Assembly: GCA_964579145.1 (NCBI GenBank)
Contig: CAZOGB010000012.1
Span: 1,866 to 65,865, forward strand
Origin: an uncultured bacterium
GTDB taxonomy: Bacteria > Armatimonadota > HRBIN16
Direction: 5' to 3'
Length of the DNA: 64,000 bases
A program made the position numbers and the translations under genes. Under the pieces are notes generated by a model that saw only the letters and a list, made by a program, of their open reading frames with translations, did not search any database and was not told the DNA's origin. This document shows positions 8,855 through 13,292 of the stretch, in pieces. The stretch's first letter is position 1; each line of letters begins with the position of its first letter.

Positions 8855-8931
<77 letters not shown>

Positions 8932-8945
8932 GCTGTTCCCCCTGG

Positions 8946-9024
8946 TGGCGGCTGTAGCTCAGCTGGTCCAGAGCGCCTGACTGTGGCTCAGGAGGTCGTG
9001 GGTTCGAATCCCATCAGCCGCCCC
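8946..9024 (+). tRNA. tRNA-His (anticodon GTG) with genomically encoded G-1
   Basis: Extra 5' G, then acceptor gcggctg/cagccgc. Anticodon stem cctga/tcagg with loop ctgtggc (anticodon GTG). T-loop ttcgaat. CCA is encoded. Confidence 0.85.
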
Positions 9025-9126
9025 ATACTACGAAATGCGCCGTTTTCCACCCCGTACCTCCACAACATCTTGTGTTTCCGCTTGTGTTTGGGTTTGACAG
9101 TTTCACGGAATCAGGCTGTTTAAGGT

Positions 9127-9152
9127 GGGGGGAGAAGCCGAACCTCTCCCCA
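9127..9152. terminator. Hairpin between the tRNAs and the convergent PEP-CTERM gene; a possible bidirectional terminator
   Basis: ggggaga-agccgaacc-tctcccc stem-loop lying between convergent transcription units. Confidence 0.35.
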
Positions 9153-9164
9153 CACGCGAAGACA

Positions 9165-10268
9165 TCAGCACCGCTTCTTGCGACGGATAGCCACCCCGGC
9201 TAGGCCGCACAAAAACAGCACCGCGGAGGATGGCTCAGGAATAACGGTAGCAGGTGCAAACACCATGTCCTCCAGAAATGCATTTGGACTATTGAAGTCT
9301 GCTATCAGCTGGCTTGCCAGGCTGTTGGTAGTAGTATCCCAGTAAACGTGCCACACCTGACCGCCACCGTACTGCTCCACCGCGATGAACAGGTCGCCCG
9401 GCTGAAGGTTCGGAATGCTCGTCAGGTTCGTCAGCTGGTAGATGGCATCCCCGAAGAGCGAAACATACAATGCCCAATTGCCCCCAGTGAACGGGAAGAT
9501 ACGGAACGATTCGGGCGAGCCGAACGACAGGGTCTGCTGACTCAACACGTTCCCATTCGCTGGATCCAGCACGAACATCGGTGCATTAGGCAGATTTTGT
9601 CCGACCAGCACACTATTCTGATAGGGTCCCCAGCGCGGATTGCTCCCCAGCACAATCATCGCTTCAGGGCGCGTCTGAAAGCCATTTCGGTCTGTCAATG
9701 TCGTTTGCCATACCACATTCCCGCTGGAATTCAGGCGAACAATGTCCCCAGTGCCTTCATAGGCATAGAAGAGGTCATTGTTGGCGACCCCGAACGAATC
9801 CCAGCGTACCGTCGTGTAGAAGGTCGGTCCAGTACCCGATGGCAATCCGGGCAGCCCTGTGGTGAAAGTGGATACGTTCCCAACCGGGTCAATCGCGAAG
9901 ATTTCGCCCCCACCGCCTTTAGCCACCAGCGTGGTACCCTGGGCGTAGGAACCCCAGCTGGATGGGAGTACCGTGAGCAAAGTTTCATAATATGCGCCCT
10001 GCGTGCTGGCGTAATGAGCAAGCGCTTTGGTAGCGAGGTCAATGGTGCCGTACTGCGGGGGGCTGGTGAAGTAGTTGTACTGCACGACAAATCGCTGGTT
10101 CACGGGGTCGTAGTCCATTTTCATGTTTCCGGGAACGTTCGTCCAAACACTCCCGGTGACACCGTAGTAGGTGGTCACCCCTGCTGTAGCAGGCAAAGCC
10201 GCCGCCAGACACAGGGTGCACCAGAGGACGCACAGGTTCATCCTGTGAAGCAAATTAGTGGTTTGCAT
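9165..10268 (-). CDS. PEP-CTERM-anchored secreted beta-rich protein (putative exosortase substrate)
   Basis: N-terminal signal peptide. C-terminus VIPEPSSAVLFLCGLAGVAIRRKKRC carries a PEP motif, a hydrophobic helix and a basic tail. The body is Gly/Thr/Asn-rich and repeat-like, suggesting a beta-propeller-like fold. Confidence 0.75.
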   Translation of the reverse strand: MQTTNLLHRMNLCVLWCTLCLAAALPATAGVTTYYGVTGSVWTNVPGNMKMDYDPVNQRFVVQYNYFTSPPQYGTIDLATKALAHYASTQGAYYETLLTVLPSSWGSYAQGTTLVAKGGGGEIFAIDPVGNVSTFTTGLPGLPSGTGPTFYTTVRWDSFGVANNDLFYAYEGTGDIVRLNSSGNVVWQTTLTDRNGFQTRPEAMIVLGSNPRWGPYQNSVLVGQNLPNAPMFVLDPANGNVLSQQTLSFGSPESFRIFPFTGGNWALYVSLFGDAIYQLTNLTSIPNLQPGDLFIAVEQYGGGQVWHVYWDTTTNSLASQLIADFNSPNAFLEDMVFAPATVIPEPSSAVLFLCGLAGVAIRRKKRC

Positions 10269-10519
10269 GGTTTGACTCCTTTTAGCGGTTTGGGAAATTT
10301 AACTGCTTTAGCATGTAAAGGGTGGTGAGGACAACCTCAACGGGGATACAGCTCCACAGCACTTTAGCCGCTATACACCCTTTTGATACGCTAATTATCT
10401 TTATTATATGCGGAATCTCGCGACCTGTCAACAGTTATCCTGTCCTTGTAATCAAAAACCAGTACCATTACCGAACAGGCGTGTCCCTCTTGCAATCGAA
10501 GCCCCGCATGAGGTATGTA

Positions 10520-10655
10520 TACTGTAATAGAAGGGGAGTAGCACCTGCCGAACAGGCAGGAGAGATTGTCGTCAGTACGCTGTATCAAAACAGCCGGCAA
10601 TCTCGCCAAACGCAAGACCTTCATCGCTACAAGGCGGTGGGGGTCTTTTTTTGTT
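10520..10655 (+). promoter_or_regulatory. Candidate yybP-ykoY (manganese) riboswitch with an intrinsic terminator, upstream of the TerC-family gene
   Basis: The hallmark aaGGGGAGUAGc element sits at 10531-10541, followed by the hairpin cctgcc-gaaca-ggcagg. A 7-bp helix forms between gagattg (10562-10568) and caatctc (10598-10604). A terminator-like stem aagacc...ggtctt plus U7 lies at about 10613-10653. The gene context (TerC/Alx/YkoY) is the canonical one for this riboswitch. Confidence 0.6.
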
Positions 10656-10679
10656 GTAAACTGTGATGGAGGCACAGGC

Positions 10680-11627
10680 ATGTATTTCTGGGTAGCTTTT
10701 GCCGTTCTGGTCATTGTCATGCTGGCTTTGGACCTCGGCGTGTTTCATCGCCACGCCCACGAGGTGCGCTTCAAGGAAGCCCTGGTGTGGTCGTTGGTAT
10801 GGATTGCACTGGCGCTGGCGTTCAATGCTGCTGTCTTTTACTGGAAAGGCACCCAGAGCGGTTTGGAGTTCTTCACCGGCTACCTCATCGAGAAGTCCCT
10901 GAGCGTGGATAACGTTTTCGTCTTTCTGATGATATTCCAGTATTTCCGCGTTCCCGTTGCATATCAGCATCGGGTTCTATTCTGGGGGATTATCGGTGCA
11001 CTGGTGATGCGTGCTATCTTCATCGCCGGAGGCATCCAGCTGTTGAACCGGTTCCACTGGATGGTCTATCTCTTCGGTGCGTTTCTGGTTTTCACCGGTA
11101 TCAAGATGGCGATACAACACGGTAAATCCTTCCATCCCGAGCGTAATCCCGTGCTGAATCTGGCACGCACCCTGTTCCGAGTCACTCCCGACTATGAAGG
11201 CGCGCGCTTTTTCGTGCGGAAACAGGCAGTGCTGTATGCCACTCCGTTGTTTGTCACGCTGTTATTTGTAGAGTTCACCGATTTGATTTTCGCCGTGGAC
11301 TCGATCCCTGCAATTCTGGCTATCTCGCGCGACCCCTTCATCGTTTACACATCCAACGTTTTTGCGATTCTGGGGTTGCGTGCCCTCTATTTTGTGCTGG
11401 CTGGTTTCCTGAACATGTTCGCCTACCTGCATTATGGACTGGCGGTGGTGCTGGTGTTCGTAGGGACGAAGATGCTCATCTCCGAGTGGTACAAAGTACC
11501 CATCGGCTGGTCACTGAGCATCATCGGGCTGGTCCTCGGCGTATCGGTAGCGATTTCGATACTGAGACCGCCCGTGGAGTCACAGGTGCACGAGGGCGAG
11601 GCGCCGCCTGCAATCTCCACCGATTAG
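10680..11627 (+). CDS. TerC-family integral membrane protein (Alx/YkoY-like, putative Mn2+ exporter)
   Basis: TGYLIEKSLSVDNVFVFLMIF TerC signature and a multi-TM profile. ATG at 10680 is preceded by GGAGG at 10668-10672. The track start at 10566 falls inside the riboswitch and is rejected. Confidence 0.85.
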   Translation: MYFWVAFAVLVIVMLALDLGVFHRHAHEVRFKEALVWSLVWIALALAFNAAVFYWKGTQSGLEFFTGYLIEKSLSVDNVFVFLMIFQYFRVPVAYQHRVLFWGIIGALVMRAIFIAGGIQLLNRFHWMVYLFGAFLVFTGIKMAIQHGKSFHPERNPVLNLARTLFRVTPDYEGARFFVRKQAVLYATPLFVTLLFVEFTDLIFAVDSIPAILAISRDPFIVYTSNVFAILGLRALYFVLAGFLNMFAYLHYGLAVVLVFVGTKMLISEWYKVPIGWSLSIIGLVLGVSVAISILRPPVESQVHEGEAPPAISTD

Positions 11628-13102
11628 TCCAGCAGGGCTTCAAACCGCCCGTATGCCTCGTCCCACGCTTCGGTGTTCTGAGGCGTGTACTCCACAATCT
11701 CGCTGGAGCGGCGCACCAGCTCACGCCCTTCCGTGATGCCCTTCAGCTCGCCCAGCGCAATCATCTGCAACAGCACGTTGCCCGCAGCGGTCGCCTCCAC
11801 CGGACCGGCAACCACCGTTCGGTTGCAGGCATCGGCGGTGAACTGGCACAGCAGGCGGTTCTGTGTGCCTCCACCTACCACGTGAATCACCTCTAACCGC
11901 TTGCCCAGCAAAGACTCCAGCTGCTCCAGCACCCACCGATATTTCAGCGCGAGGCTTTCCAGACAACACCGCACAAACTGTCCGGGCGTTTCAGGCGAGG
12001 GCTGGTCCGTGCTGGCGCAATACGAGCGGATAGCCTCCAGCATGTTCGTCGGGGCGAGGAAATCGCGCCGATCGGGATCAATTAGCGAGCGGAAGGCGGG
12101 AGCCTCTGCTGCCATCTGCGTGAGCTGTTCGTAACTGTATTCCTGTCCCTCGCGCGCGTAAGCCCGGCGACACTCCTGCACCAGCCACAGCCCCATGATA
12201 TTGCGCAGGAAGCGAATGGTGTTGTTCACGCCTCCCTCGTTGGTAAAGTTCAGCGTGCGCGTGTGGGCGTTGATCATCGGCTCGGGCAGCTCCACCCCCA
12301 TCAGCGACCACGTGCCACTGCTGATATAGGCAAAATCGCTACCCCGCGATGCGGGCACTGCCGCCACCGCCGAGGCGGTATCATGGCTGCCGGGCGTGAT
12401 GACCTCCGCGTCGTGCGCACCGGTCTCCTCAGCCACCGCCTTGCGCAGTTTGCCCAGAGGAGTGCCCGGCGGCACAATCTCCGGCAGGAAGTGCGTGGGA
12501 AGCCCAACGTGCCTCAACAGGTCTATCGCCCATTGCCCGGTGCGCGGGTCCATCATCTGTGACGTGCTGGCAATCGTGCGTTCACACACCTTCGCACCAC
12601 TCAACCAGTAATGGAACAGGTCGGGCATCATCAGCAGTCTGTCTGTAATCTCCAACAGACCGGGATGCTGTTGTTGAACCGCAATCAGCTGGTACAGGGT
12701 ATTAATCGGCATGAACTGGATGCCGGTCGCGTCGTAGATGGTATCTGCGCCGACCATCGCCTGCACCGACTCCATGATGCCGTCGGTACGGTGGTCGCGG
12801 TAATGCACCGGGTTGGTGAGCAGCGTGCCGCGCGCATCCAGCAGCCCGAAGTCCACCCCCCATGTATCCACGCCCACCGAACGCACACCCTCACCGTACT
12901 CGCGAACCGTCAGGCTGATGCCCTGCAGGATTTCGGCATACTGGCGCAACACGTTCCACGTCAATGCATCGGGCAGGCGCAAAGGAGTATTGGGGAAACG
13001 GTGTATTGTCCTGAGCTCCAGACGCTCTCCATCATACACGCCCGCTACCGCACGTCCACTTTCCGCACCCAGGTCAAAGGCGATATACACCTGTGAGGAC
13101 AC
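11624..13102 (-). CDS. rhaB: Rhamnulokinase (FGGY carbohydrate kinase family)
   Basis: VYIAFDLGAESGR N-terminal FGGY motif and rhamnulokinase-like length. The most likely start is GTG at 13102, preceded by AAGGAGGT at 7 nt. The track start at 13237 adds a probably spurious 45 aa extension. Confidence 0.75.
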   Translation of the reverse strand: MSSQVYIAFDLGAESGRAVAGVYDGERLELRTIHRFPNTPLRLPDALTWNVLRQYAEILQGISLTVREYGEGVRSVGVDTWGVDFGLLDARGTLLTNPVHYRDHRTDGIMESVQAMVGADTIYDATGIQFMPINTLYQLIAVQQQHPGLLEITDRLLMMPDLFHYWLSGAKVCERTIASTSQMMDPRTGQWAIDLLRHVGLPTHFLPEIVPPGTPLGKLRKAVAEETGAHDAEVITPGSHDTASAVAAVPASRGSDFAYISSGTWSLMGVELPEPMINAHTRTLNFTNEGGVNNTIRFLRNIMGLWLVQECRRAYAREGQEYSYEQLTQMAAEAPAFRSLIDPDRRDFLAPTNMLEAIRSYCASTDQPSPETPGQFVRCCLESLALKYRWVLEQLESLLGKRLEVIHVVGGGTQNRLLCQFTADACNRTVVAGPVEATAAGNVLLQMIALGELKGITEGRELVRRSSEIVEYTPQNTEAWDEAYGRFEALLD

Positions 13103-13129
13103 AGTTCGGTGACCTCCTTGCTGAAGATT

Positions 13130-13141
13130 TATTCTGCAGAA
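13130..13141. promoter_or_regulatory. Perfect 12-bp palindrome ATTCTGCAGAAT about 28 nt upstream of the rhaB start; a candidate operator
   Basis: The sequence is its own reverse complement. It lies in the 190-nt leader between the ABC ATPase stop and the rhaB start. Confidence 0.35.
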
Positions 13142-13292
13142 TGAATTCGCGCCCGGCGGGAAGAATCCTGCCATAGTGCAGGAACAAACAGGCGGGCTGT
13201 CCACGCAAGGGATTACCCAGTGATGGGTGACAGGCAAAGCGCCGTTATAACTTCAACATTGCCCCTGTGGTCAGCCAGTTTGCTCCCTGCTC

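Follow-up and report, generated by a model that had tools for sequence, protein, structure and literature searches.

The locus raises the question of whether the leader of a TerC-family gene in a 64-kb stretch of Armatimonadota DNA (hereafter the window) controls that gene as a manganese riboswitch, as an earlier note on the sequence had proposed. The leader is predicted, with a probability of roughly 90%, to be a yybP-ykoY Mn2+ riboswitch that adopts a P4-less three-way junction and serves as an ON switch for a monocistronic TerC/Alx gene. The proposed riboswitch identity of the leader was supported by single matches of two family covariance models (R1 and R2), covariation in the helices, and the assignment of the encoded protein to TIGR03718.

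The gene occupies positions 10680-11627 of the + strand and codes for a 315 amino acid membrane protein, as given by the open reading frame tables together with the profile matches. Its placement in the TerC family, already suggested in the earlier note, was confirmed by Pfam PF03741 (E 1.1e-53), and TIGR03718 (R_switched_Alx) matched with 425.3 bits against an NCBIfam cutoff of 246.4, aligning residues 2-296 with profile positions 4-300 of 303. The product may export Mn2+ or otherwise serve metal homeostasis as a membrane protein, and the leader lies upstream of one of the Mn-homeostasis gene types (TerC/Alx/YkoY, MntP, and P-type ATPases). With the following gene (11624-13237) in convergent orientation, the TerC/Alx gene was regarded as monocistronic. 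A yybP-ykoY core was present within 400 nt upstream in three of 43 genome loci with close TerC/Alx homologues (46-97% identity), so the link between the element and TerC is not universal. Most members of the riboswitch-linked TerC/Alx family in Binatia, Deltaproteobacteria, and Acidobacteria MAGs apparently have other regulation or divergent leaders. A different conserved leader was observed at three TerC-homologue loci lacking the Mn core (L028 975-1205, L029 282-627, and L032 916-1205), consisting of a promoter-like TTGCGT-17-TATATT followed by a long hairpin (AGAGGAU..GUUCCAC...GUGGAAUGG..AUUCUC); it had no Rfam match at E <= 1, and its three sequences displayed few compensatory changes.

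The invariant Mn-riboswitch core, GGGGAGUAGC, UCGUCA...CGG, and GCAAGACC, was identified on the + strand at 10530-10622, which together with the helices delimits the structural core of the aptamer, while the limits of the covariance model matches place the whole domain at 10527-10626. The composite pattern GGGGAGTAGC-N(20-50)-TCGTCA-N(20-50)-GCRAGACC occurred once in the 64-kb window (10533-10619, +) and in none of 100 dinucleotide-preserving shuffles, and the leader was markedly more stable in its folding than shuffled sequences (z = -5.5). All helices of a two-legged multi-helix junction were found (P1.1, P1.2, P2, P3.1, and P3.2), with P1.1-L1-P1.2-P2 forming the first leg, P3.1-L3-P3.2 the second, and a 7-nt linker joining them.

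In the first leg, the P1.1 "switch helix" pairs GAAGG (10530-10534) with CCUUC (10618-10622) through five canonical pairs out of five, is present in the unconstrained minimum free energy (MFE) structure of a nascent transcript ending at 10626, and has two inner G-C pairs that were invariant in 38 of 38 relatives. The L1 block GGGGAGUAGC (10533-10542), which includes the 5' side of L1 at 10535-10540, did not vary in either alignment of independent members (A1 and A4), and the near-invariant element recognized in the earlier note lies within it (GGGGAGTAG at 10533-10541). Both sides of the conserved L1 loop, GGGGAGUAG(C) on the 5' side and (GC)RAGACC on the 3' side, were matched exactly at 10533-10542 and 10612-10619. 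P1.2 is formed by canonical pairing of GC (10541-10542) with GC (10612-10613), and the P2 hairpin CCUGCC-GAACA-GGCAGG (10544-10560) contains six base pairs (10544-10549 with 10555-10560). The 3' side of L1, AAGA (10614-10617), and the 3' strand of P1.1, CCUUC, together make up a segment (10614-10622) common to the aptamer and the terminator.

The second leg starts with the 7-bp helix pointed out in the earlier note, now identified as P3.1 (GAGAUUG, 10562-10568, with CAAUCUC, 10598-10604), which does enclose the TTGTCGTCA region (10566-10574). The L3 internal loop, which in the family has GUC-A on its 5' side and CGG/GGC on its 3' side, lies between the 7-bp P3.1 and the 5-bp P3.2; in the window its 5' side UCGUCAGUAC (10569-10578) is part of the metal-binding loop, its 3' side is CGG (10595-10597), and the TCGTCA and CCGG of L3 were invariant in alignment A1. 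The leg is closed by the canonically paired P3.2 hairpin GCUGU-AUCAAA-ACAGC (10579-10594; 10579-10583 with 10590-10594). The position of P4 is taken by the A-rich single-stranded linker GCCAAAC (10605-10611), as seen in the sequence and in the alignment to R2, and a P4 hairpin cannot form because GCAAGACC follows P3.1 after no more than these 7 nt. The leader consequently did not fold into the four-way junction, an outcome that the earlier note had named as evidence against the riboswitch. It forms a P4-less three-way junction, an architecture already published for the family (PMC6649816), and the objection is therefore not valid.

Members of the family were collected by scanning viral and prophage-flank contigs with a family-core pattern, yielding 48 loci of which about 30 are real elements (among them 13 without P4, a group with four-way junctions, and L066, which is of the L. 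lactis yoaB type), and by scanning metagenome contigs for the UCGUCAGYAC subtype of L3 (at least 120 loci). Model R1 was constructed from 13 unrelated P4-less elements with the structure annotated by hand. The 43 sequences behind model R2 were all four-way-junction members, E. coli mntP and the yoaB-type element among them, so that its training set contained no P4-less sequence and nothing from the lineage of the window. R2 derives from alignment A4, which was made with MAFFT and had its pairs checked by hand; the P2 and P4 columns of A4 are only partly in register, and P4 was therefore left unpaired in the model. An R1-guided alignment of the four-way-junction members (A3) was set aside as its 3' end was misregistered.

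R2 gave a single match in the 64-kb window, at 10527-10626 on the + strand (62.3 bits, E 3.9e-16; runner-up 8.6 bits), and its alignment to the window element displayed a clean 10-position deletion exactly at P4. The element was not filed under the four-way subtype because of this deletion and the 7 nt at the P4 position. R1, searched against both strands of the window, likewise had a single match, with the same limits (44.3 bits, E 6.1e-9), placing the element with its GCCAAAC linker among the P4-less members. R2 also recovered E. coli alx from outside its training set (27.9 bits), and R1 scored 29.4 bits on the yoaB-type element and 19.0 bits on mntP; the two models thus connect the window element with canonical four-way-junction members.

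The helices were further supported by covariation, for which 42 P4-less elements (38 distinct rows) were aligned to R1. Paired cells amounted to 95.3% versus 63.5% in shuffles and double-sided changes were found in 17 of 21 pairs, in an alignment that was fitted to the structure of the model and thereby favors it; the covariation score was 0.804 compared to 0.03-0.12 (maximum 0.122) in registers slid by 1-3 columns. All five modeled pairs of P2 carried double-sided changes across the relatives, all seven pairs of P3.1 covaried (96.2% of cells paired), and the three modeled pairs of P3.2 were 100% paired and all covarying. Closer to the window, the TerC protein was 97% identical to one in the Chthonomonadia MAG L001 and 79% identical to one in the Armatimonadota MAG L027. 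Both carried the same P4-less riboswitch, terminator, and gene with compensatory changes, such as U-A to C-G changes in P3.1 of L027, and they scored 61.1 (L001) and 57.2 bits (L027) with R2. The short linker was also shared, as ACCAAAC in L001 and CCGAAAAG in L027.

Rfam at its gathering threshold detected two tRNAs and nothing else in the whole 64-kb window. The Rfam 15 "Manganese" model RF00080 (177 positions) was absent at E <= 10 from a search on 381 nt, where the best match was SSRC10 (23.2 bits). On the 151 nt from 10515 to 10665, RF00080 matched 10521-10655 with 20.6 bits and E 3.1e-4, and no other Rfam family had a lower E-value on the leader. The earlier note had named a score below the RF00080 gathering threshold as evidence against the riboswitch; the score did fall below that threshold (45), and so did the controls, namely E. 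coli mntP (41.6 bits), the L. lactis yoaB-type element (38.7 bits), and the P4-less element L045 (25.8 bits), with control loci at L044 962-1058 and L066 2299-2393 (minus strand). Among 10 P4-less and 10 P4-containing metagenomic elements, none of the 20 reached 45, six having 21.6-27.8 bits and the others being unreported. The test is uninformative here because validated members also fall below 45, and a score below gathering in this Rfam 15 setup gives no ground for dismissing candidates of the Mn class.

The missing P4 was considered as the cause of the low RF00080 score and rejected, since four-way-junction members with the same L3 type scored equally low (21-27 bits). The low score therefore reflects weak sensitivity of the model to the L3 subtype and neither P4 loss nor non-homology. 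The consensus printed for RF00080 is of the proteobacterial GCGUCAACAUACUUG...CAUGGCGC type, with the P1 pairing not shown. In the setup used, its gathering threshold misses most of the family.

An intrinsic terminator was identified on the + strand by the terminator scan and in the MFE structure of the full leader, consisting of a 15-bp stem (10614-10628 with 10633-10647) with an ACAA loop. As described in the earlier note, it is U7-tailed and close to the gene, the tract (10646-10652) lying 28 nt before ATG 10680. The 5' arm of the terminator begins with positions 10614-10622, nine nucleotides that also make up the 3' strands of L1 and P1.1. A nascent RNA ending at 10626 folded by itself into P1.1, P2, and P3 (-37.4 kcal/mol), while for the full leader the terminator structure had an MFE of -56.3 kcal/mol versus -43.9 kcal/mol for the best fold with P1.1 enforced, a difference of about 12 kcal/mol. 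Terminators overlapping P1.1 were also found in L001 and L027 and in many of the P4-less metagenome elements (L108, L118, L130, L133, L138, L201, and L212).

These alternatives suggest how the switch would operate. Mn2+ bound between the L1 and L3 loops would dock the two legs and stabilize the 5-bp P1.1, holding it closed while the polymerase transcribes the 3' arm of the terminator. Stabilized P1.1 would block the terminator because 10614-10622 belongs to both, and RNA polymerase would read through into the TerC gene; in the case of no Mn2+, the far more stable terminator would prevail and transcription would stop at the U7 tract. Work by Dambach (2015) and Price (2015) is said to support Mn2+ docking and the P1.1 switch mechanism of the family. 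In the literature, P1.1 is the switch helix, and its 3' half is described as having the expression platform for an alternative partner (PMC12153347); for the mgtA riboswitch of S. pneumoniae, which is likewise P4-less, Mn2+ was shown to activate read-through (PMC6649816). Prevention of termination by Mn2+-stabilized P1.1, and hence a transcriptional ON switch, is the most likely mode of action.

The same fold and family could in principle serve a signal other than Mn2+ alone, such as Ca2+, another divalent metal, or pH. This is improbable as the L. lactis yoaB-type element has exactly the same metal-site nucleotides (GGGGAGUAG, AAGA, GUCA, and CGG) and the gene under control is a member of the Alx/TerC subfamily, which serves Mn homeostasis. 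The idea draws on S. pneumoniae mgtA, the only characterized P4-less member, which bound Ca2+ more tightly than Mn2+ in vitro, although read-through of mgtA was activated far more by Mn2+ than by Ca2+ (PMC6649816). It also draws on alx, the other three-way variant, in which Mn2+ sensing is coupled to alkaline pH (PMC12153347; PMC12934788), and on the variation of L3 by subtype (UCGUCAGUAC in the window compared to GUGUCAACAUAC in mntP).

A second alternative, a constitutive attenuator or a trans-acting small terminated RNA gene similar to SSRC10, with no ligand control of TerC, is much less probable still. Its appeal lies in the thermodynamic dominance of the terminator and in SSRC10 (RF02617) having the higher bit score of the weak Rfam matches, at 10540-10652 (23.2 bits versus a gathering score of 56). 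Northern blotting detected SSRC10 as a discrete transcript of ~113 nt, and in S. pyogenes it is directly followed by the gene of a "putative calcium transporter" (PMC3675131). The SSRC10 ("Streptococcus sRNA 10") consensus itself displays the L1 and L3 core of the Mn riboswitch without P4, plus a terminator. This core and the position upstream of an mgtA-type transporter make it most simply a terminated riboswitch transcript, and the Rfam family thus appears to be the terminated form of a P4-less Mn riboswitch. The window element is like SSRC10 in architecture only and stands outside this Streptococcus-specific family; it instead fitted the family models with E-values down to 4e-16 and conserved all ligand-site nucleotides, and members of the family normally switch through just such an overlap between P1.1 and terminator (PMC12153347).

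That the region is coding, as an N-terminal TerC extension from TTG 10566 in the open frame 10566-11627, can be given practically no credence, since TIGR03718 aligned from residue 2 of the ATG-10680 product, TerC homologues from other phyla aligned from its residues 1-4, a GGAGG Shine-Dalgarno sequence (10668-10672, +) lies 7 nt upstream of ATG 10680, the extension would be read through the U7 terminator, and in L001 a 1-nt indel in the T-run (T6 versus T7 in the window) shifts the frame of the upstream "ORF" so that the extension there begins at a different codon. This combination of profile alignment, homologue starts, Shine-Dalgarno sequence, and indel supports ATG 10680 as the start of this Armatimonadota TerC/Alx gene, in agreement with the earlier note. 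A small hairpin at 10661-10677 (CTGTG/CACAG) displays the GGAGG in its loop, with a sequence kept in L001 and not in L027.

Regarding the upstream boundary of the riboswitch transcript, no sigma70-type promoter was detected by the scan on the + strand at the leader, so that we infer, rather than read from a promoter, a transcription start near 10530. The candidates TTGCAA (10490-10495) with TATGTA at an 18-nt spacing, or TATACT (10518-10523), were weak and partly conserved in L001, and were not retained. On the minus strand, 10431-10403 carries a perfect sigma70 consensus, TTGACA-17-TATAAT (12 of 12 positions), facing a divergent PEP-CTERM ORF, and L001 keeps a TTGACA...TACAAT promoter though it has no PEP-CTERM gene. 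Comparison of window positions 9080-10281 with L001 676-804 revealed ~1.07 kb extra over the 94-96% identical L001, located directly after tRNA-Arg(tct) (8855-8931) and tRNA-His(gtg) (8948-9025). The extra DNA contains a 367 amino acid ORF (9165-10268, minus strand) whose C-terminus resembles PEP-CTERM and which has a weak match of the PQQ_2/BamB-like type, and in L027 the tRNAs lie ~90 nt upstream of the riboswitch. The ~1.07 kb difference represents a gene gained or lost at strain level beside the tRNA genes.

Returning to the predicted P4-less Mn2+ riboswitch, its junction departs from the canonical aptamer, a four-way junction with P4 stacked on P3 that is found in every crystallized aptamer (PMC12153347). 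P2 and P4 are both dispensable in the yybP-ykoY family according to the literature, Martin et al. (2019; PMC6649816) described the P4-less three-way junction in S. pneumoniae mgtA, and members of the family thus need not form a four-way junction. Among the metagenome matches listed, the slot between P3.1 and GCRAGACC was bimodal, with 6-10 nt in 27 of 105 confidently parsed elements and at least 13 nt in the rest, a fraction biased by the gap limits of the pattern and including some near-duplicate loci. P4-less elements preceded close TerC homologues in at least 19 of 35 cases with a callable downstream ORF, and P4-less three-way elements with terminators overlapping P1.1 are common in environmental sequence data, while the form is known experimentally from Streptococcus mgtA only. 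It is conceivable, if rather unlikely, that the P4-less form constitutes a widespread and functionally distinct subclass in which the junction might alter metal selectivity or dynamics (e.g., mixed Mn2+/Ca2+ sensing). The form extends over several phyla, mostly sits on TerC genes, and comprised about a quarter of the metagenome matches listed; on this reading, Rfam annotation would largely miss the subclass. The plainer assignment is that the window element is a commonplace regulator of a three-helix type known before, here in the little-studied phylum Armatimonadota. It contributes a Chthonomonadia example from this phylum to a riboswitch class that ranks among the most widespread, and is biologically routine.

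Among known systems, the S. pneumoniae mgtA riboswitch shares P1.1/L1/P1.2, P2, P3.1/L3/P3.2, and a short A-rich linker in place of P4 with the window element, along with the same 14 nt spacing from CCGG to GCRAGACC and a predicted transcriptional ON switch in which an intrinsic terminator overlaps P1.1 at its 3' strand. It differs in its Streptococcus-invariant linker UNAAA, of which GCCAAAC (CCAAA) in the window is no literal match, and in controlling a P-type ATPase gene in Firmicutes compared to TerC/Alx in Armatimonadota. The S. pyogenes counterpart of the mgtA riboswitch is curated in Rfam as the sRNA SSRC10 (RF02617). The L. lactis yoaB element, compared via L066, has L1 (GGGGAGUAGC...GCAAGACC) and L3 (GUCGUCA...CCGG) identical to those in the window and a terminator overlapping P1.1 in the same way, and unlike the window element it bears a P4 hairpin on P3.1; its crystal structure is PDB 4Y1I. 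The B. subtilis yybP and ykoY elements are transcriptional Mn2+ riboswitches with the canonical four-way junction. Two further family members, the riboswitches of E. coli mntP and alx, regulate Mn-export genes, and alx controls a protein of the same TerC/Alx subfamily as in the window; they differ in acting as translational switches with an L3 of the GUGUCAACAUAC type. The alx element is also a three-way junction (PMC12153347), which in contrast to the element in the window lacks P2 and not P4.
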